Shown here: in pieces, positions 2,043 through 62,668 of the stretch
How positions within the stretch are numbered: the first letter of the stretch is position 1
Layout of the letters: every line of letters begins with the position of its first letter
The notes under the pieces: model-generated
What the model was told of the DNA's origin: nothing
The model's database searches: none
The model's input: the letters and a program-made list of their open reading frames with translations, nothing else
Made by a program: the position numbers and the translations under genes
Assembly (NCBI GenBank): GCA_043732705.1
Contig: JAYTHE010000032.1
Location: 2,005 to 66,004 of the forward strand
Length of the DNA: 64,000 bases
Source: Candidatus Omnitrophota bacterium
GTDB taxonomy: Bacteria; Omnitrophota; Omnitrophia; Omnitrophales; Aquincolibacteriaceae
Direction: 5' to 3'

Positions 2043-3532
2043 CAGACTTAAAATACAAAGAATACGGAACTGTCAAAGCCGTTAGCGGTTGTATCGCAAA
2101 AGTAATCGGTCTGCAAAATTGTTTTTTGGGGCAGTTGGTCAAGCTCGGAAAAGGCGCGGAAGGAATTATCATGGGTTTCGATTTAGAAATCGCGCAAGTT
2201 TTGATTGTGAAAGAGGCCGAGCCTGTTAGCCCGGGATGTGAAGTGATCGGAACGTTGGAGCCGTTCAATATGCCGGTCGGGGCCAATACGATCGGAAGAA
2301 TCATGAACCCTTTGGGGGATGCGCTCGATGGATTGGGACCGATTTCATTTGATACGCGCATCCCTTACTTTAACGCCGCTCCGGCTATTATGGATCGTGA
2401 AGGTTTGGGCCGATCATTTGAAACCGGAGTGAAGCTGATCGATACCATGCTGCCTTTAGGTAAAGGACAGCGCTCATTGGTGTTGGGCGATAAGATGACA
2501 GGCAAGACAACAATTGGCACGGATATTATTGTGAATCAAAAGGGCAAAGATGTCATTTGCATTTATTGCGGTATTGGAAAAACAAAATCAGCCATGGGAC
2601 GAGTCATTGATATTTTTAAAGAAAACGGCTGTTTTGATTACACAATTATTTTGCTGGCAGCGGCATCTTCTTCGCCGGGATTACAGTATTTAGCGCCCTA
2701 CGCAGCTTGTTCGCTCGGAGAATATTTTATGTACCAGGGCAAAGATGTTTTTATTTTTTTTGATGATTTTACGACGCATGCCTGGGCCTATCGGGAATTA
2801 TCGCTCTTGATGGAAATTCCTCCAGGAAGAGACTCTTATCCGGGTGATATTTTTTATTTGCATTCGCGCATGATTGAACGCGCGGCCCAACTTGATAAAA
2901 AACACGGCGGAGGATCGATGACCTTTTTGCCGGTGGTTCAGCTTTTGGAAAGCGATATGACGGCTTATGTGCCGACTAATCTGGTTTCAATGACAGACGG
3001 ACAGCTCTCGTTAAACGCGCAGCTTTTTAATGAAAATTTTCGCCCGGCCGTGGATGTGGGGTTATCCGTTTCGCGCGTCGGAAGCCGTGTCCAATGGAAA
3101 GCGACCAAAGCGGTGACTAAGTCCTTGCGCATGGAATTCATTCAATATAAAGAATTAGTGCGTATGAGCAAACTCCAATCGGGAGGGTCGGACGAAACCC
3201 GCGAAACTTTGCGTTCAGGAAAAGTGCTTTCGGCGCTTCTCATGCAAGCGGCAGGCAAACCAGTTGCTCTCGAAATGGATATTATTATTTTTTACTCAAA
3301 AGATGTCGGTCTTTTTAAAAAAATGGAAGCCCAGCATGCTCCCGAGTTTCTGAAGGGGCTTGAAGCCTATGTGGAAAAAACAGATTCTTTGCTGCGCAGT
3401 GACATTCGCACCAAAAAAGATTTAACTGACGACTTGAAAGCAAGAATTAAAAAAATAATTGAACCCTATGTGAGCACTGTTATTAAGCAGGTGGATGACG
3501 CGAAAAAAGCCACGTTAGCTCAAATTCAATAA
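2039..3532 (+). CDS. atpA: F-type ATPase alpha-subunit-like, divergent
   Basis: Alpha-type P-loop GDKMTGKTT; N-terminal beta-barrel region resembling alpha (GRIMNPLGDALDGLGPI); full-length 497 aa. Confidence 0.8.
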   Translation: MTDLKYKEYGTVKAVSGCIAKVIGLQNCFLGQLVKLGKGAEGIIMGFDLEIAQVLIVKEAEPVSPGCEVIGTLEPFNMPVGANTIGRIMNPLGDALDGLGPISFDTRIPYFNAAPAIMDREGLGRSFETGVKLIDTMLPLGKGQRSLVLGDKMTGKTTIGTDIIVNQKGKDVICIYCGIGKTKSAMGRVIDIFKENGCFDYTIILLAAASSSPGLQYLAPYAACSLGEYFMYQGKDVFIFFDDFTTHAWAYRELSLLMEIPPGRDSYPGDIFYLHSRMIERAAQLDKKHGGGSMTFLPVVQLLESDMTAYVPTNLVSMTDGQLSLNAQLFNENFRPAVDVGLSVSRVGSRVQWKATKAVTKSLRMEFIQYKELVRMSKLQSGGSDETRETLRSGKVLSALLMQAAGKPVALEMDIIIFYSKDVGLFKKMEAQHAPEFLKGLEAYVEKTDSLLRSDIRTKKDLTDDLKARIKKIIEPYVSTVIKQVDDAKKATLAQIQ

Positions 3533-23065: not shown

Positions 23066-23082
23066 ATAAGATCAACTTAAAA

Positions 23083-23112
23083 AGCCGGCTGCTCGAGCAG
23101 TCGGCTTTTTTT
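23083..23112. terminator. bidirectional rho-independent terminator between convergent genes
   Basis: AAAAAGCCGGCTGCTCGAGCAGTCGGCTTTTTTT: GC hairpin flanked by an A-run and a T-run. Confidence 0.55.
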
Positions 23113-46790: not shown

Positions 46791-47105
46791 TTGAAATCAG
46801 AATCTGATATCAAACGTTTAAAAATTACGCTGCTAGTTGCGGGACTTATGCTGTGTGTTGCGGTTCTGCCTTCATTGCCCTATTACTTTTTTATTTTACT
46901 TCGCTGCGTGATTTGTGGAGCTGCGGTTTATGCTGCGGTGGCATTGCGAACCGAAGATGCGCCACTCTCGAATCATTTTATTCCGTTGGCGATTCTGGCA
47001 ACTTTATTCAACCCCATGATCCCGGTTCAATTGTCGTATTCGCTTTGGCTGGTGATTGATCTTGGCACAGCGGTTTATTTTTCGATTCTAGTTAGACAAT
47101 TATGA
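46791..47105 (+). CDS. small membrane protein
   Basis: 104 aa with three hydrophobic helices. Confidence 0.35.
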   Translation: MKSESDIKRLKITLLVAGLMLCVAVLPSLPYYFFILLRCVICGAAVYAAVALRTEDAPLSNHFIPLAILATLFNPMIPVQLSYSLWLVIDLGTAVYFSILVRQL

Positions 47106-47173
47106 TGCAAATACTTCTCGTTTCTTGTCAGTCTTTCCATCTGCTATAATTCTTCATTCATTAATTACGATTA

Positions 47174-47290
47174 GAAGGTAACAAAGCATGAAGATACTAT
47201 TGCGCCGAAGGCGCATAAATATAACTGGTGGGTCCACAGTAAAGTATCTTCACTGCGACGGAGTCGCATGAAGATACTTTACTGTGGTGA
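47174..47290 (+). promoter_or_regulatory. leader region with a 27-codon Arg-rich upstream ORF (47188..47271) whose stop overlaps the main start (ATGA), and a ~25-bp hairpin (47234-47259 / 47263-47287) burying the main AUG
   Basis: Leader ORF translates as MKILLRRRRINITGGSTVKYLHCDGVA; RBS GAAGGT; the left hairpin arm can alternatively pair with the leader start region (shared TGAAGATACT). Confidence 0.5.
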
Positions 47291-47993
47291 CAGTCACGAA
47301 GGCGGTCCGGCAAATTACCTGCTGGGCATTTTGAATTATAATAACGCAGATGTGACGCACATTCCTCCAGGAGTTCAGCTTGAGCCGCAAATTTTCAACC
47401 AGCGTTTTGATGCGATTATTTTGAGTGATTATGGCCGCGATTGCGTTTCCGCTAAAGCCGAAGAAAAAATTATTTATCAGGTTTTGTCGGGAACAGGCCT
47501 TCTGATGGTGGGCGGCTGGGGTTCTTTTTCAGGGCCTTTCGGAAATTGGAAGGGTTCCGAAATTGAAAAGCTTTTGCCGGTGGATTGTCTCAAAAAAGAC
47601 GATCGGCATAATTTAGGTTCAGGGCTTTATGTGTTTAAAAAGAAAAACAACCCTATTCTTAAGGGCGTGAACTTAAAGCAATCACCCGTGATTATCGGTT
47701 TTAACGAAGTGAAGCCAAAAGAAAATGCCGACGTGATTTTAACGCTTAAAGCTTTTCAACCGTCCAAAAAGAGTTTTTCAAAACAAGAATATCCACTTTT
47801 AGTGTTAAACAAAAATCCCGAAATTCGCACTGCTGCTTTTACGACCGATTTCGCACCGCACTGGTGCGGCGGACTTGTAGATTGGGGTAATAAGCGCTGC
47901 AAACTTTTCGTATCAAAAGATATTCAAATTGAAATCGGTGATCAGTACGTTCAGTTTGTTTCACAGATTTTGAAATGGGCCGCACGCGCCTAA
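47268..47993 (+). CDS. hypothetical protein, possibly class I glutamine-amidotransferase-like fold
   Basis: 241 aa; no firm motif; first gene of the photolyase operon. Confidence 0.35.
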   Translation: MKILYCGDSHEGGPANYLLGILNYNNADVTHIPPGVQLEPQIFNQRFDAIILSDYGRDCVSAKAEEKIIYQVLSGTGLLMVGGWGSFSGPFGNWKGSEIEKLLPVDCLKKDDRHNLGSGLYVFKKKNNPILKGVNLKQSPVIIGFNEVKPKENADVILTLKAFQPSKKSFSKQEYPLLVLNKNPEIRTAAFTTDFAPHWCGGLVDWGNKRCKLFVSKDIQIEIGDQYVQFVSQILKWAARA

Positions 47994-49435
47994 TGTCTTT
48001 GCCCGCGGCAATTGTCTGGCTGCGCCGCGATCTTCGCCTTGATGACAATCCCGCCCTCATCGAGGCTTTAAAACTATGTGATGTTATTCCTGTCTATATT
48101 CATGACCCTGAGTCAGAAGGTGCTTGGCAACCAGGTGCTGCGGGACAGTGGTGGCTGCATCAATCTCTTGAAAAGTTTTCCCAAGACTTAGCAGCTAAAG
48201 GCTCACAGCTCATTTTTAGGAAAGGGGATTCGCTCTCTGAGTTAAAAAAAATAATTCGAGAGACGAATGCGAAAGGTGTCTTTTGGAACCGCCGTTACGA
48301 GTCTGAAATTATTGAACGGGATAAAAAAATTAAAGAGGCCCTTAAAAAATCAGGCATGGATGTGCAAAGTTTTAATGCCAATCTCCTGAATGAGCCGTGG
48401 ACAGTTCAAACCGGCGGCGGCACACCGTTTAAAGTTTTTACGCCGTTTTGGAAAAAATGTTTAAATTCACCGGAACCAGTTCTGCCTTTAGCGGCGCCGA
48501 AACAAATTCCTGCTCCTGCTGAATGGCCCAAGTCTTGTAAGCTTTCCGATCTCCAATTAATGCCCGCGATTAAATGGTATGCCGGCATGAAAGAAGATTG
48601 GCAGCCGGGAGAAGCGGGCGCGCATGCTGAACTAAAAAATTTTCTCGATGAAAATGGGATACGGTATTTAGACGGCCGCGATACGCCATCGATTCGTGCC
48701 ACATCGCGAATGTCGCCTTATTTGCATTTTGGTGAAATCAGCCCGCGCCGGATTTGGCATGCGGTTCAAAAAAAATCTGCTCAAAGAAAAGAGTCCGGTT
48801 GGATACGTCAAGCTGAAGGTTTTATCCGTCAAATTTATTGGCGCGAATTTGCTTACCATTTACTTTACCATTTTCCTCAGACAACCGATCATCCTTTACG
48901 AAAACACTTTGAAAGGTTTGAATGGAAAAAAGACGCAAAGCTGCTGAAAGCCTGGCAAAAGGGAAACACCGGTTACCCGATCGTGGACGCAGGGATGCGC
49001 GAACTATGGCATACGGGCTGGATGCACAATCGCGTACGCATGATCACGGCTTCCTTTTTGGTGAAAGACTTGCTGATTCATTGGCTGGAAGGAGCGCGTT
49101 GGTTTTGGGATACTCTTGTCGATGCGGACCTTGCGAATAACACTTTGGGGTGGCAATGGGTTGCGGGGTGCGGTGCCGATGCCGCACCCTATTTCCGGAT
49201 TTTTAATCCGTTTACGCAGGGTGAAAAATTTGACGGAGAAGGCCTTTATGTCCGCCGCTGGTGTCCCGAACTTGCCCAGCTTCCCAATAAGTGGATTCAC
49301 CGTCCATGGGAAGCGCCGCCAGAAATTCTAAGTGCGGCCGGGGTGGATCTGGGGAAAACCTACCCAAAACCGCTTGTAAACCATGCGGATGCCCGCAAAA
49401 AAGCCCTGCTTTTATATGACCGCATCAGGGCTTAA
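47975..49435 (+). CDS. phrB: deoxyribodipyrimidine photolyase / cryptochrome family
   Basis: AIVWLRRDLRLDDNPAL; C-terminal FAD-binding region WMHNRVRM...GWQWVAG...PYFRIFNP. Confidence 0.85.
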   Translation: MGRTRLMSLPAAIVWLRRDLRLDDNPALIEALKLCDVIPVYIHDPESEGAWQPGAAGQWWLHQSLEKFSQDLAAKGSQLIFRKGDSLSELKKIIRETNAKGVFWNRRYESEIIERDKKIKEALKKSGMDVQSFNANLLNEPWTVQTGGGTPFKVFTPFWKKCLNSPEPVLPLAAPKQIPAPAEWPKSCKLSDLQLMPAIKWYAGMKEDWQPGEAGAHAELKNFLDENGIRYLDGRDTPSIRATSRMSPYLHFGEISPRRIWHAVQKKSAQRKESGWIRQAEGFIRQIYWREFAYHLLYHFPQTTDHPLRKHFERFEWKKDAKLLKAWQKGNTGYPIVDAGMRELWHTGWMHNRVRMITASFLVKDLLIHWLEGARWFWDTLVDADLANNTLGWQWVAGCGADAAPYFRIFNPFTQGEKFDGEGLYVRRWCPELAQLPNKWIHRPWEAPPEILSAAGVDLGKTYPKPLVNHADARKKALLLYDRIRA

Positions 49436-49476
49436 GTAAGGCTTGTTCTGATTCTTCTCCCTCGATATAATCCCGC

Positions 49477-49608
49477 ATGAGCAAACTTGTCCTTATATCC
49501 CTTTTAGTTGTAGCGGTTTTTATGTCGGGCTGTAAGTCCGCAGCTATTTCTGGAACAGAAGTAGCGAGTTTTAACGGTAAGAAAACCGCGATTCTTCCTA
49601 GTCATTAA
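49477..49608 (+). CDS. 43-aa putative lipoprotein (below the ORF-track size cutoff)
   Basis: MSKLVLISLLVVAVFMSGC|KS lipobox-like. Confidence 0.3.
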   Translation: MSKLVLISLLVVAVFMSGCKSAAISGTEVASFNGKKTAILPSH

Positions 49609-49680
49609 TGTTTTGTTTTGTATCTTTCTGCTAGTTTTAATATCGTCCAAATTTGCACATAGCAAAAGCGTCTGTTAAGT

Positions 49681-51138
49681 TTGGGCTTATCTGTCGGAGG
49701 TTTCGTGTTTTTTTCGTTTTCAAATTTAGATTTTAAAAAGAAGATTATTTTATGCTCCCTCATGTCGGCTCTTTTTTCGCCGATTATTTTTTCTATGCCC
49801 TCCGTTGAAGCCGCACAGGATGACCCGGGTTTGCGTATTCCGGAGTCGCAGGAAATTGCGCCCGACCAGTTTTTGGCGAGCGACGCGAGTAAATACTTTC
49901 AGAACGGAGATTTTGACAAGGCGATGATCGCCCTCAATCAGCTCGAAAAAAGTTTTCCCAATGACGAGTTAATTCAACGTTATCGTGCGATGACGCTTGA
50001 CCGTCTCGGCAAGTCCACTGAGGCGATAGAAATTTTCAACACTCTTCTTGCTAAAAACCCTGAACATGTTCCGACGCGTTATTTTCTTGGTCAGGCTTAT
50101 GCTCGCAGTGGGCGTTATGACGACGCGGCACGTGAGTGGAAGCAAGTCGCGAAAGATGGTGAGGGAACACCCTACGCTTTTTGGGCACAAACAGCGCTTG
50201 AACAAACCGGCAAGCCGGGAGTTAAATCCGAGCCTGCTGGAAAACTTCAGCGTTGGTACATCCAGGCCCGTTACGGTTATGAATTTGATTCCAATGTTAT
50301 TTTGCGTCCCGATGACCGCTCCCTGTCGGATGTCAAAGATCCTAATGCAGGCCGTCACAATCTCGACTTAGCTATTCGTTATCGCGCAGTTTCGCGTCGC
50401 GATACCGCGTTGGATGTCACATATGCGGCACGCCAGAGTTTGCACGATGATAATTTTAATGAATTCAATTACCATTCCGAAGAGGTGGGGCTCAATTTTC
50501 GTCAACGCACGAAGATTGGCGATCAAGACGTTGTGCTGGGATTACGTTATGAATATTTATTGGGCTTTCTCGGAGAAAACCTTTATTCTCAGCGCAATCG
50601 CTGGCATATTTCTGCCGATACAAAATTTACCGAACATACCCAGACGATTTTTTATGATCGTATGACGGTTTCCAATTATGGTCCGGATGGGTTTAATCCT
50701 CCGCAAACTTCGCGCGATGGATTTGAAAATGACACCGGGGTGACTCAGTTTTTCTACGGTCGAAATTTTCAACAGCATCTCTTTTTGCGTGGTGAGTTTA
50801 ATACAGCAGCAGACCGTGGTTCTAATTTTGACTCGGTTGGGTATACCACGCGCGTGGGTTTTCATGCACCTATTCCGCACACAAAAAAGTTTTCATTTGA
50901 TATTTCTTCAGGGCTTGAAAATCATTTCTATCCGCACTTTACTTCCACATCCAGTCTTGACAGGAGCCGGCGCCGTGATCTGGAGTGGGACATATATACA
51001 GCGATAACCTACGACATTACCAAAGACTTTGCAGTGCGCAGCTTTTACCGTTATGTAAACAGCAATAATCAAAATAACTTGTATGACTATCAACGCCAAA
51101 TCGGCGGAATTCAGTTTATTTACAGCCGAGCCGCATAA
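49681..51138 (+). CDS. outer-membrane protein: N-terminal TPR region plus C-terminal beta-barrel-like domain (Slam/DUF560-like or BcsC/PgaA-like)
   Basis: Signal peptide; TPR helices; then about 330 aa of alternating amphipathic strands rich in Y/F/N/D/G/R; start uncertain (TTG 49681, GTG 49705 or ATG 49762). Confidence 0.45.
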   Translation: MGLSVGGFVFFSFSNLDFKKKIILCSLMSALFSPIIFSMPSVEAAQDDPGLRIPESQEIAPDQFLASDASKYFQNGDFDKAMIALNQLEKSFPNDELIQRYRAMTLDRLGKSTEAIEIFNTLLAKNPEHVPTRYFLGQAYARSGRYDDAAREWKQVAKDGEGTPYAFWAQTALEQTGKPGVKSEPAGKLQRWYIQARYGYEFDSNVILRPDDRSLSDVKDPNAGRHNLDLAIRYRAVSRRDTALDVTYAARQSLHDDNFNEFNYHSEEVGLNFRQRTKIGDQDVVLGLRYEYLLGFLGENLYSQRNRWHISADTKFTEHTQTIFYDRMTVSNYGPDGFNPPQTSRDGFENDTGVTQFFYGRNFQQHLFLRGEFNTAADRGSNFDSVGYTTRVGFHAPIPHTKKFSFDISSGLENHFYPHFTSTSSLDRSRRRDLEWDIYTAITYDITKDFAVRSFYRYVNSNNQNNLYDYQRQIGGIQFIYSRAA

Positions 51139-52928: not shown

Positions 52929-53255
52929 TTGTTCCTGTCCGGCAAACCGCAGCGTCGAGTCTTTAAAAGAGGATGAAACCGTCTTTTAGCTCAGTTGGTA
53001 ACCCGACTATGCTTTCATTTTTTTACTCTGGGCTGCGCCCAACCGTATAGTGGTTGGATTCACCCAGAACAGAAATGAAATCGCACCCGTGGCTTTGCGT
53101 CCTACTCTTACGAGCAGTTTGCCTTTTTCAATGTCTATTAGAAGGATGCTTGTGAGAGCTGTAAAATACAAGAGCTAGACAGTAAATAATTGTATGCTAG
53201 ACTATCAACATGATCATTTATGCTATTAATCGATATTCATTGAAGAGGTTTTAAT

Positions 53256-59418: not shown

Positions 59419-60483
59419 ATGAAAATCAAAAAAGCTTCGGCGAAGATTTGGCGTGCCGAATTGAATCAGCCTTTTAAAATAGCTACCGGCGCTCATTCCA
59501 TTCTTGAAAATGTATTGCTTGCCGTCGAACTTGAAGACGGGACTCGGGGATACGGTGAGGCGCCTGTCGCCACGCATATTACCGGGGAAACAGTTAAGCA
59601 AACGCTTGCGAATCTCAAAAAGTGCGCGGAGCAAATTCAGGGACGCAGTATTTTTGATTATGCGGATTTTTACCCGGCATGGGAAAAGCTTTTCAAAGAA
59701 AATAAATGCGGGATGGCGGCGGCGGAAATGGCCGTATTTGATGCGTTGACCCGTAAATTAAAAATGCCGTTTTGGAAATGTTTTGGGGATAAACCTGAAA
59801 TTTTAAAAACAGATTTGACAATAGTGGTCGGTTCTTCGGAAGAGGCGCGGCTTGCTGCCGAGAAAATTCACGAGCTGGGGATTTTGACATTGAAGATTAA
59901 AATCGGAAAAAATCCCGAGATGGATTTGGAGCGTGTAAAAGCGGCGGCAAAAGTTTCACCTTACAGCCGCATTTACCTGGACGCAAATCAAGGATTTACC
60001 GTGAAATCCATTCTGAAGCTGATTGATGATTTGGCTCAAATTAAAATTATTCCGGAATTGATCGAACAGCCTGTGCCGAAGCATGATTTGAAAGGCTTGA
60101 TTGAAATTAGCCGCAAAACAAAAATTATGATTTGCGCGGATGAAAGTGCTTCATCGCCGGATGATGTTCGGAAGCTGGTGAAGATGGGGTTTAAAGGCGC
60201 GGTTAATATTAAGTTTGTGAAATTTGGTATTCGCGGCGCATGCGAGGCGGTTGCGATCGCAAAAGAGGCCGGTTTGAAACTAATGATGGGGGTGATGATG
60301 GAGTCACCGCTTGCAACGACGGCCGCGGCCCATTTTGCGGCGGCGCTCGGCGGCTTTGATTTTATTGATTTGGATTCACCCTATTTTATGAAAGAGCAGA
60401 TTACTCGCGGTTTCTCAATCGGTGCTGGCGGCGTTTATGACTTGAGGAAGATTAAAGCCGGCATCGGTGTTGAACCTTCATGA
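59419..60483 (+). CDS. enolase-superfamily dipeptide epimerase (L-Ala-D/L-Glu epimerase-like)
   Basis: KIKIG...YLDANQGFT...ELIEQPV...ICADES pattern of MR/MLE enzymes. Confidence 0.7.
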   Translation: MKIKKASAKIWRAELNQPFKIATGAHSILENVLLAVELEDGTRGYGEAPVATHITGETVKQTLANLKKCAEQIQGRSIFDYADFYPAWEKLFKENKCGMAAAEMAVFDALTRKLKMPFWKCFGDKPEILKTDLTIVVGSSEEARLAAEKIHELGILTLKIKIGKNPEMDLERVKAAAKVSPYSRIYLDANQGFTVKSILKLIDDLAQIKIIPELIEQPVPKHDLKGLIEISRKTKIMICADESASSPDDVRKLVKMGFKGAVNIKFVKFGIRGACEAVAIAKEAGLKLMMGVMMESPLATTAAAHFAAALGGFDFIDLDSPYFMKEQITRGFSIGAGGVYDLRKIKAGIGVEPS

Positions 60484-61619
60484 TCTCGATCATCTTCGCG
60501 ATTTTCTTTATTTTGGGGCTCGAAGTCTTTTTGCTGGGCCTTGCTGTTTTTCCGCGTACGAAGAATTGGTTTTCAATTATCCCCGTTATTTTTTGGCTTT
60601 ATTTTCTACCGTCTGTTTTCGCGAAGTTCGGAATTCTGCATATTCCCGAAACTTTGGCTTCATTTGCTTCGAGTTGGCTGCTGCCGCTGGCACTCATTCT
60701 GATGATTGCTCCCGCCAATGTCGGGCAATTAATGAAAATGGGAAAAACAAGTTTCGTAACTTTATGCGCGGTTTATTTTACGGTCTTGACGGGGGGATTA
60801 ATCAGTTTTCTTATTTTTCGTTCGACGCTTGCGGCAGATGCTTGGGAGGCCTTTGCGGCACTCGGCGCAACTTGGACGGGCGGCACGGTGAATATGCTCG
60901 CTGTCAAAGAAATAGTTAATTTAAGCGACAGTCACTTCTCAGTCCTGATTTTAACGGATGCTTTTATATCTTACGGATGGATGGCAATTTTAATGTTGGC
61001 CTTTCGTTGGAGCAAACATCTCGATCAATGGACGGCTTCTGAAGCTTCACAGCAGAAAAGTGATGAGTCAAGCCGGGGCTTGCCTTGGTTTCATTTTTAT
61101 GATGCCGTTTGGGTTTTGGCCGCTGTACTTTTGGTTTGGGGTTCACGGTCGCTTGCTTCCTTCATGCCAGCGACCGAAACGTTTCCGATCAAAGCTTGGG
61201 TTTTGCTTTGGGCTTCAGTCTTGGCGCTGCTTGCGGCAAGTGCGGGCTGGCATAAACTTTTGTGCAGCCGTTTTTCCCGTGAGTTCGGACTTTGGCTTTT
61301 ATATTTTGTTTTAATCGCAATTCGTGCAAACGCAGATTTCTCAATCGGAATTAAAGACTTTATGATCATGGCTGCGGCACTAGTTTGGATTTTAATCCAC
61401 GGTGCTTTAATGCTGGTTTATGCCAAAGTTTTTCGTGTCCGCTTCGCGATGGTTGCGACCGCAAGTCAGGCGGCGATTGGGGGAGTCATTTCCGCACCGG
61501 TTGTCGCCGCACTTTACGACCCGACTTTGATATCCGCTGCGGTGCTTATGGGGATATTTGGTAATTTAGTTGGGACTTATCTGGGCCTTCTTTTGGGGCA
61601 TATCATTCGCTTGCTTTAG
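60480..61619 (+). CDS. polytopic membrane protein (DUF819-like)
   Basis: 379 aa with about 10 transmembrane segments. Confidence 0.45.
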   Translation: MISIIFAIFFILGLEVFLLGLAVFPRTKNWFSIIPVIFWLYFLPSVFAKFGILHIPETLASFASSWLLPLALILMIAPANVGQLMKMGKTSFVTLCAVYFTVLTGGLISFLIFRSTLAADAWEAFAALGATWTGGTVNMLAVKEIVNLSDSHFSVLILTDAFISYGWMAILMLAFRWSKHLDQWTASEASQQKSDESSRGLPWFHFYDAVWVLAAVLLVWGSRSLASFMPATETFPIKAWVLLWASVLALLAASAGWHKLLCSRFSREFGLWLLYFVLIAIRANADFSIGIKDFMIMAAALVWILIHGALMLVYAKVFRVRFAMVATASQAAIGGVISAPVVAALYDPTLISAAVLMGIFGNLVGTYLGLLLGHIIRLL

Positions 61620-61636: not shown

Positions 61637-61685
61637 TGTCCACCTCCCGGTAGTGGACAAATTGTCCACTACCGGGAGGTGGACA
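61637..61685. repeat. 49-nt perfect palindrome (two 24-nt arms around one centre base), likely a bidirectional terminator or protein-binding site
   Basis: TGTCCACCTCCCGGTAGTGGACAA-A-TTGTCCACTACCGGGAGGTGGACA. Confidence 0.6.
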
Positions 61686-61741: not shown

Positions 61742-62668
61742 ATGATTACAGCTATTCCCAAATCAGGCGAAGTGCATGTTTTGCTCGACCAATTTTCAGA
61801 TTATCTTACTGTTGAAAAAGGTTTAGCGCGCAATTCCATTGATGCTTACCGCAGTGATTTGCTGCATTACCATCAAAGTTTGGTTGAACAAAAAGTCCGC
61901 GATTGGGCTAAGGTTGACCGCGCGCATATTATCCATTTTTTAGCGGATGAAGATAAGCGCGGGCTGGAGGCGACATCTCGCGCAAGAGCATTGGTAAGTA
62001 TTAAACTCTTCCATCGTTTTCTCACCAAAGAACGTTATTTAAAGGAAGACGTAACGAGCGTGCTCGAAGCGCCGAAGACTTGGAAAAAACTGCCGCAATT
62101 TTTGACGCAAACCGAAATGGAAGAAATACTGAAGCAGCCCCGGACGCGGACGCCGCGCGGTTTACGCGATCGCGCAATTTTGGAAATTCTTTATGCCGCG
62201 GGCGCACGTGTTTCCGAAGTAGCAGGTTTGCTGAAAGACAATGTTTTTTTAAGCGAGTCATTTATCAAATGCCGGGGCAAGGGAAGTAAGGAGCGTTTGG
62301 TTCCGCTTGGAAAGACTGCGGTACAATTCGCCAATGCGTACTTGGTGATGCGTGAAGAACTTTATGGCGGCAAGCTTCCCAAATCGACTTGTCCCAATTT
62401 TTTTCTGAATCCGCGAGGGCAGCCGATCTCGCGCCAATTCGTTTGGAAAATTGTAAAAAAATACGCGCTTGCTGCCGGTATTTCAAAATTGATTACACCG
62501 CATACTTTCCGTCATTCTTTCGCGACGCATTTACTTGAAAATGGCGCAGATTTGCGCGTGGTTCAAGAGTTGCTGGGTCATTCGGATATTTCAACGACAC
62601 AAATTTACACGCATGTGTCGCGAGACCGGCTTCGCAAAGTCCATGCTGAGTTTCATCCCCGCGGCTGA
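61742..62668 (+). CDS. xerD: tyrosine site-specific recombinase XerD/XerC family
   Basis: ARNSIDAYRSDL; RHSFATHLLENGADLRVVQELLGHSDISTTQIYTHV. Confidence 0.8.
   Translation: MITAIPKSGEVHVLLDQFSDYLTVEKGLARNSIDAYRSDLLHYHQSLVEQKVRDWAKVDRAHIIHFLADEDKRGLEATSRARALVSIKLFHRFLTKERYLKEDVTSVLEAPKTWKKLPQFLTQTEMEEILKQPRTRTPRGLRDRAILEILYAAGARVSEVAGLLKDNVFLSESFIKCRGKGSKERLVPLGKTAVQFANAYLVMREELYGGKLPKSTCPNFFLNPRGQPISRQFVWKIVKKYALAAGISKLITPHTFRHSFATHLLENGADLRVVQELLGHSDISTTQIYTHVSRDRLRKVHAEFHPRG

Follow-up and report, generated by a model that had tools for sequence, protein, structure and literature searches.

In Escherichia coli, the translation of iraD is coupled to that of an upstream ORF (uORF), ORF27, and this coupling has been established experimentally (Park et al. 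2017, PMC5574718); the uORF has 27 codons, its own Shine-Dalgarno (SD) sequence and a stop codon overlapping the iraD start, and a structure sequesters the SD of iraD. Translation of iraD depends on translation of the uORF, by unwinding of this structure and/or by reinitiation; CsrA represses the uORF, on which all regulation is exerted (PMC5574718). The RNA-unfolding and reinitiation models of translational coupling have been reviewed, and the classical coupled cistrons with an inhibitory structure include f1 genes VII/IX, MS2 coat-lysis and rpmI-rplT (PMC12548453).

The photolyase operon described here resembles iraD/ORF27 in being preceded by a 27-codon uORF that has its own SD and a stop codon overlapping the downstream start, and in having a structure, here a predicted one, that blocks this start. 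We propose, with a probability of roughly 0.55, that these elements form a lineage-specific translational gate on the operon, which operates via obligatory coupling of the operon to its leader ORF.

The window, by which we mean the whole 64-kb stretch of Candidatus Omnitrophota DNA that was analyzed, contains the leader between the DUF6804 gene and the operon (Table 1). The GATase1_like gene truly starts at 47268, because the protein starts of 24 homologues align with MKILYCGDS, the N-terminus of the 241-aa ORF (25 family members in total); D8, S9 and G12 are invariant in the family alignment, and the main reading frame is open back to 47175. We place the probable transcription start, judging from the sequence, near 47157, 7 nt past the putative promoter element TGCTATAAT, and the RNA predictions below assume a transcript starting at ~47157. 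This element was not called by a consensus promoter scan that needs a -35 match; a -10 element (TGnTATAAT or TATAAT) is located 20-36 nt before the first start codon in the relatives' loci L001, L005, L008, L015, L016, L019 and L020.

Table 1. Coordinates of the leader, the hairpins and the neighboring genes (positions in the window).
Feature	Position	Strand	Description
DUF6804 gene	46791-47105		upstream neighbor; last of the exbB-exbD-tonB-DUF6804 cluster
Probable extended -10 element	47142-47150	+	TGCTATAAT; read from the sequence, putative promoter
SD of leader ORF	47174-47178	+	GAAGG, 9 nt before leader ATG; predicted P(unpaired) 0.73 at 37 °C
Direct repeat, copy 1	47186-47198	+	GCATGAAGATACT, 13 nt; 100% identity to copy 2, 80-nt spacing
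Leader ORF	47188-47271	+	27 codons + TGA; ATG 47188, TGA 47269-47271; peptide MKILLRRRRINITGGSTVKYLHCDGVA
Small hairpin h1	47201-47215	+	UGCGCC-GAA-GGCGCA; four Arg codons form both arms; extendable to 47194-47222
Main hairpin, left arm	47234-47258	+	leader codons 16-24; reverse complement of the main ORF's first 20 nt
Main hairpin, loop	47259-47263	+	CGGAG; holds main ORF SD GGAG (47260-47263), 4 nt before ATG
Main hairpin, right arm	47264-47287	+	last 4 nt before main AUG, AUG, codons 2-7; includes ATGA 47268-47271
Direct repeat, copy 2	47266-47278	+	GCATGAAGATACT, 13 nt
First operon gene, GATase1_like (PF07090)	47268-47993	+	241 aa; start set by family alignment
Second operon gene, DNA photolyase (PF00875 + PF03441)	47975-49435	+	19-nt overlap with the GATase1_like gene

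Several features of the neighborhood recur in relatives. The overlapping GATase1_like/photolyase pair (19 nt) is conserved in the window (47268-49435), in L001 (3189-5362) and in L019 (234-2383), and the conserved gene pair suggests, from gene order, a functional link between the GATase1_like (PF07090) protein, whose function is unknown, and photoreactivation. The DUF6804 gene, which encodes a small membrane protein, directly precedes the operon in the window, L001 and L005, where it comes after exbB-exbD(-tonB), and is ~2.2 kb upstream in L002. The gap of ~245-300 nt between the photolyase and TPR genes (window 49436-49740; L001 5363-5658) is ~82% identical over aligned positions, which equals the conservation of coding sequence; the reason may be a small gene that escaped annotation, a TPR ORF that starts earlier or a regulatory RNA.

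The initial annotation of this DNA had described a 27-codon leader ORF with its own ribosome binding site, ending in an ATGA on the main start, and a stem of ~25 bp burying the main AUG together with the first seven codons; the sequence confirms the former, and RNA folding bears out the latter. At the ATGA junction (47268-47271), the leader TGA overlaps the ATG of the GATase1_like gene (47268), and the leader ORF spans both arms of the main hairpin (47234-47287). In this hairpin, 47234-47252 pairs perfectly (19/19) with 47269-47287, and an inner stem of 5 bp (47254-47258/47264-47268) follows beyond the bulged C47253, giving 24-25 bp overall. The hairpin alone has a predicted folding energy of -38 to -39 kcal/mol; the 161-nt region has a z score of -6.84, and 0 of 200 shuffles fold equally well. 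At 37 °C, the predicted probability of being unpaired is 0.014 for the main AUG (47268-47270) and 0.68 for the leader AUG; at 15 °C, the value for the main AUG falls to 0.002. In the folding model, the hairpin sequesters the main AUG and spontaneous opening is not possible.

The 19-mer and its reverse complement are unique in the 64-kb window, where 0.01 chance matches are expected, and just 5 inverted repeats there reach 16 nt and have arms separated by no more than 60 nt. A repeated or mobile element was considered and rejected, both the insert and the hairpin arms being unique in the 64 kb. An Rfam scan of the whole window at gathering score gave no match at the leader/hairpin region, and at the hairpin just sub-threshold microRNA-precursor models appeared, on the minus strand, fitting a generic long hairpin. 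Other structured elements are found elsewhere in the window. The strongest hairpin is a perfect 24-nt inverted repeat, TGTCCACCTCCCGGTAGTGGACAA/TTGTCCACTACCGGGAGGTGGACA, at 61637-61685, which has 1 nt between its arms and no T-run and is intergenic between the plus-strand ORFs 60480-61619 and 61742-62668. A c-di-GMP-I riboswitch aptamer (RF01051, 58.3 bits vs. a gathering score of 35) is located on the minus strand at 52994-53133, downstream of a FecR-like gene region, and a GC-rich palindrome flanked by A-/T-runs, AAAAAGCCGGCTGCTCGAGCAGTCGGCTTTTT, at 23079-23110 looks like a bidirectional intrinsic terminator.

The leader ORF and the operon share sequence at their starts, each copy of the direct repeat GCATGAAGATACT holding one start codon, the leader ATG in copy 1 and the main ATG in copy 2. 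The MKIL that opens both the leader peptide and the downstream protein, which had been read as mimicry, is indeed present but is a by-product of this 13-nt repeat. The first 17 nt of the leader match the family start sequence with a 2-nt gap; the idea that the whole leader is a diverged copy of the gene's 5' end was rejected, as beyond ~17 nt the similarity has p = 0.06 and 0.38. A further inverted repeat (47189-47198/47243-47252) joins the leader start to the left arm of the main hairpin. The corresponding duplex has a predicted energy of -18.4 kcal/mol, and it is present in the minimum free energy (MFE) fold of a transcript that ends before the right arm (-28.0 kcal/mol). The three-element switch that was initially suggested thus has its geometry in place, but it does not hold as an equilibrium switch, because the main helix (-38 kcal/mol) outcompetes the alternative once the right arm exists; in these predictions, the alternative pairing can matter just as a short-lived co-transcriptional intermediate.

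The upstream DNA was compared at 15 relatives' loci (L001-L005, L007-L010, L012-L014, L015/L016 and L018-L020); L006, which is the same contig as L001, L017, which duplicates L016, and L011, which is without the gene's 5' end, were left out. The 241-aa protein shares 75-83% identity with its closest homologues. Among these 15 loci, the leader is carried by L001 alone, a syntenic locus in the Omnitrophota MAG GCA_043718225.1 with 82-83% protein identity. The other 14 loci, which include relatives at 75-84% protein identity, have a -10 element, a weakly structured UTR of 20-36 nt, an SD and an ATG, and no leader; start-codon sequestration as a general property of the gene family was rejected in view of these weakly structured UTRs. 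A genome scan with the protein returned 9 loci, with the leader in L001 (= L006) alone, and eight lookups of the closest proteins (75-83% identity) gave one leader carrier. Metagenome scans with back-translated MKILLRRRRINI and with GGAGnCGnATG plus the conserved N-terminal codons returned nothing, and a protein search with the N-terminal 90 aa gave 3 distant matches and no further carriers.

The leader SD and ATG occupy the position of the gene's own SD and ATG in the leaderless relatives, and for this reason we regard the leader and hairpin together as an insertion of ~80 nt, which, judging from the alignment, is placed after the gene's 11th nt and recreates the start further downstream. In the protein tree, the clade at 75-84% identity is nearly star-like, and gain and loss of the element cannot be put in order, because L019 groups with L001 but is without the leader; a clean gain/loss story was rejected, a single gain being inseparable from a gain plus a loss. 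In another of these relatives, L020, the GATase1_like gene is apparently frameshifted near its start (1218-1260), where ATGAAAATCTTATATTGTGGGATAG is one base short compared with ...TGTGGTGAYAG, and the called protein begins at an internal TTG; this could be an assembly error or a pseudogene.

Comparison with L001 indicates what has been maintained in the leader. Between the window and L001, the nucleotide identity of coding sequence is 70-77%, and that of third codon positions is 50-54% and of synonymous sites ~53%; in the leader region, 86% of the aligned positions are identical. The L001 leader, MKILLRRRRINIVGGKIAIKYRDGAA, has 26 codons and an SD (AGGAG) before its ATG; the ATGA junction is kept, and the indels between the two leaders, +3 and -6 nt, preserve the frame. 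The motif CGACGGAG(Y)CG(Y)ATG is also conserved in L001, where it occurs twice. Codons 1-12 carry four substitutions, all of which (4/4) are synonymous transitions, leaving the peptide MKILLRRRRINI identical; synonymous transitions account for 10 of the 36 possible, and the chance of 4/4 is ~0.006. We consider the leader ORF to be probably translated, because L001 keeps synonymous-only changes in codons 1-12, frame-preserving indels, an SD of its own and the ATGA. Within h1, a single pair, 47205:47211, accounts for two of the four substitutions (47205 C>T and 47211 G>A), the C-G of the window being replaced in L001 by U-A, a compensatory change. At codons 1-12, the constraint on the peptide and that on the RNA are, from these sequences, inseparable.

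In the C-terminal half of the leader, the peptide is not conserved between the window and L001 and the pairing is, and this half appears to be dictated by base-pairing and not by the peptide. The window pairing CCACAG:CUGUGG corresponds to UCGCAA:UUGCGG in L001, in which two pairs are changed on both sides, and on the right arm these changes alter the Tyr and Cys codons of the main gene synonymously. A further pair with both sides changed is found in the inner SD hairpin, which reads GCGAC-GGA-GUCGC in the window and ACGAC-GGA-GUCGU in L001. Across the stems, both partners differ in three pairs, and in four others a change on one side alone retains the pairing as G·U, which argues for constraint at the RNA rather than the DNA level, because G·U pairs work on the plus-strand RNA alone. 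In total, 28 of the 30 homologous pairs are kept in L001, in a comparison that leans towards the window fold, the structure being derived from the window sequence, and whose chimeric alignment understates the change in the inner SD hairpin. The leader and pairing that were expected to be conserved in orthologous loci are thus kept in L001 but absent from the 14 others, and covariation, to which the initial annotation had also pointed, is seen as the three two-sided changes but comes from two genomes (n = 2), with 57 of 500 column shuffles doing as well.

The stem itself is far less secure in L001. Its long-range stem has a constrained fold of -21.3 kcal/mol vs. an MFE of -22.6 kcal/mol for a different fold, and the long-range duplex has -11.4 kcal/mol (p = 0.03 vs. 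shuffles). In addition, L001 has a tandem duplication of 24 nt at 3177-3224, CGACGGAGCCGCATGAAAATATTA|CGACGGAGTCGTATGAATGTATTG, whose copies are ~79% identical and comprise the SD-hairpin, the ATG and the first four codons. The duplication adds a second SD and an in-frame ATG, and thereby an extension of 8 aa, MKILRRSR, in the annotated protein P0003; the extra AUG overlaps the leader stop and has a predicted probability of being unpaired of 0.84. Because the long stem is weak in L001 and the duplication gives an accessible in-frame start, the tight lock looks, on these folding predictions, specific to the lineage of the window rather than a conserved requirement, and L001 looks loosened or bypassed.

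If the gate operates as we propose, the operon mRNA would begin ~30 nt upstream of the leader ORF, with the leader SD and AUG reachable and the main AUG locked, such that no de novo initiation would take place there. A ribosome translating the leader would cross both arms and unwind the stem, and would terminate at the UGA of the AUGA overlap, where GGAG lies 4 nt before the main AUG; the same ribosome would then reinitiate, or a second one would load before the stem refolds. Translation of the operon would amount to the leader initiation rate multiplied by the coupling efficiency, so that any regulation would act on the leader initiation region. What we infer here is leader translation, its coupling to the main gene, and a limiting or conditioning of photolyase-operon expression; most likely, the gate would serve to hold translation of the operon down or to tie it to what happens at the leader initiation region. 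A programmed -1 frameshift was rejected, as no slippery heptamer (XXXYYYZ) is found within the leader in any frame.

The coupling mechanism is left uncontested by one rival reading, which disputes its purpose: the element may be a non-adaptive relic, in which the first ~20 nt of the gene were duplicated in direct and inverted orientation and inserted at the 5' end, a frameshifted leader arose from the original SD and ATG, and constructive neutral evolution has retained the arrangement, with leader translation rescuing expression fortuitously and nothing being regulated. We consider this reading unlikely, although it has much to commend it, as it is consistent with the 13-nt direct repeat and the perfect 19-nt inverted copy of the gene start, the match of the leader's first 17 nt to the family start, the ancestral SD/ATG position held by the leader, the lack of the element at the 14 other loci and the 24-nt tandem duplication at the same spot in L001, which partly bypasses the lock. 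It is harder to reconcile with a leader region conserved well above synonymous sites, with changes in codons 1-12 that are all synonymous, with compensatory changes that preserve the pairing of the stems, and with the finding that, past the start repeat, the leader does not significantly resemble the 5' end of the gene. A ribosome-stalling sensor, in which MKILLRRRRINI or the rare Arg codons CGA/AGG would slow or arrest the ribosome according to the supply of Arg-tRNA or the presence of a small molecule, and in which the stall would set the time for which the hairpin is open or closed, seems to us distinctly improbable. The perfect conservation of the codon 1-12 peptide through synonymous-only changes speaks for it, as does the clustering there of rare codons (ATA, three times in the leader and 8.9% of Ile codons; CTA, 3.2% of Leu; CGA and AGG, 10% and 5% of Arg), and an RRRR run is present in none of the 31 long ORFs of the window. 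However, a ribosome stalled at codons 6-9 (47203-47214) would be short of the left arm at 47234, leaving the operon off; arginine is without a link to the GATase-like or photolyase genes; no intrinsic terminator is predicted between the leader and the gene, where no U-tract is present and the stem is followed by UGACAGUCACG; and the leader runs on through the stem, unlike erm-type or cat-type leaders. The translation- or Arg-tRNA-dependent control suggested in the initial annotation therefore survives in its first part, the leader being probably translated, but the Arg run need not be a sensor, because the four Arg codons also build the conserved h1, whose compensatory change explains the conservation of the same nucleotides by itself. 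There is likewise little prospect that the leader is a recently evolved sensor, made de novo by the direct and inverted 5'-end duplication, in which pausing at the strictly conserved, poly-Arg and rare-codon-rich MKILLRRRRINI tunes translation of the photolyase operon. The parts of such a sensor would be similarly doubtful: a pause by the nascent chain or the codons that sets the ribosome dwell at the AUGA junction, a sensing of translational status (e.g., charged Arg-tRNA, cold or stress), and a short-lived duplex between the leader start and the left arm that orders events during transcription.

Other readings address the hairpin as such. About two helical turns of double-stranded RNA is the size class of RNase III substrates, and the nearly perfect 24-25 bp of the stem would suit an RNase III-type processing or decay site, at which cleavage would destroy the main start and leader translation would protect the mRNA. 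This idea is compatible with, and not exclusive of, the coupling model, but the L001 stem is short, interrupted and G·U-containing, so that such a role would not be conserved; we regard it as a slim chance. A feature acting at the DNA level, that is, a regulator operator, a cruciform or a recombination site, is very improbable: the perfect 19-bp inverted repeat with its 16-bp spacer has the appropriate form, but it is ~90-140 bp downstream of the -10 element, within translated sequence, and is unique in the window. Moreover, the L001 arms match via G·U alone, which would be mismatches on the other strand and in DNA half-sites, and the right arm has drifted where the codons of the gene allow synonymous change, with the left arm compensating. 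The thermosensor that was also suggested initially, a hairpin melting on warming to expose the start codon, can be excluded for the main stem and is scarcely credible for the element as a whole. The AUG is sequestered, as in RNA thermometers, but heating to 80 °C is predicted to leave the stem intact throughout (-10.4 kcal/mol), and up to at least 90 °C it would stay folded, with most of it still paired at that temperature; the label of the L001 MAG, GFS_12873, which we take to mean glacier-fed stream, suggests a cold habitat; and just the weak pairing of the 5' UTR with the leader start (-7 kcal/mol), which is not conserved, is in a thermometer-like range.

To our knowledge, the Omnitrophota are uncultured and no gene regulation has been characterized in the phylum. 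If the model of a coupled gate is true, photolyase-operon expression in Omnitrophota would be limited post-transcriptionally, and a gene start would have been turned, by direct and inverted duplication, into an obligatorily coupled leader-hairpin gate. The sister lineage would then show an intermediate or escaped state, and the two together would provide a snapshot of uORF control arising and later being bypassed. Because the mechanism has good precedents and the element is confined to two MAGs, its general importance is modest; it stands out mainly for a stem that is extremely stable and is built as an inverted copy of the gene start, and for how it contrasts with the sister lineage.

Among attenuation systems, the erm/cat leaders are similar in that a leader peptide precedes a start-hiding hairpin and alternative pairings exist among three or four segments, and the trpL/hisL/pheL leaders in that a short leader ORF contains a run of codons for one amino acid. 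The erm/cat leaders, however, end before the hairpin, and drug-dependent stalling re-pairs the segments, whereas here the leader would be translated through the hairpin; attenuation of this type was rejected, as the leader (47188-47271) spans the arms and the alternative pairing is ~20 kcal/mol weaker. A trpL/hisL-type attenuator was rejected as well, given the absence of a terminator with a U-tract and the presence downstream of GATase1_like and photolyase rather than arginine genes. The resemblance to attenuators seen in the initial annotation thus falls away, a leader that runs through both arms pointing to coupling and not to stalling-dependent refolding. Classical coupling is closer, with the -4 nt spacing (AUGA), a hairpin silencing the downstream start, and unwinding followed by 30S or 70S reinitiation, although in the classical cases the upstream cistron is a real protein gene that sets stoichiometry and here it is a 27-codon leader. 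With iraD/ORF27, there is no sequence relationship. The iraD structure hides the SD, whereas here the SD is in the loop, and the AUG and codons 1-7 are buried in a far more stable stem that repeats the start of the gene in inverted form; L001 has such a blocking structure in part alone. iraD has CsrA, and no trans-acting regulator is known here. Taken together, the locus is a new, lineage-restricted instance of the known uORF-mediated coupling with a start-sequestering hairpin.
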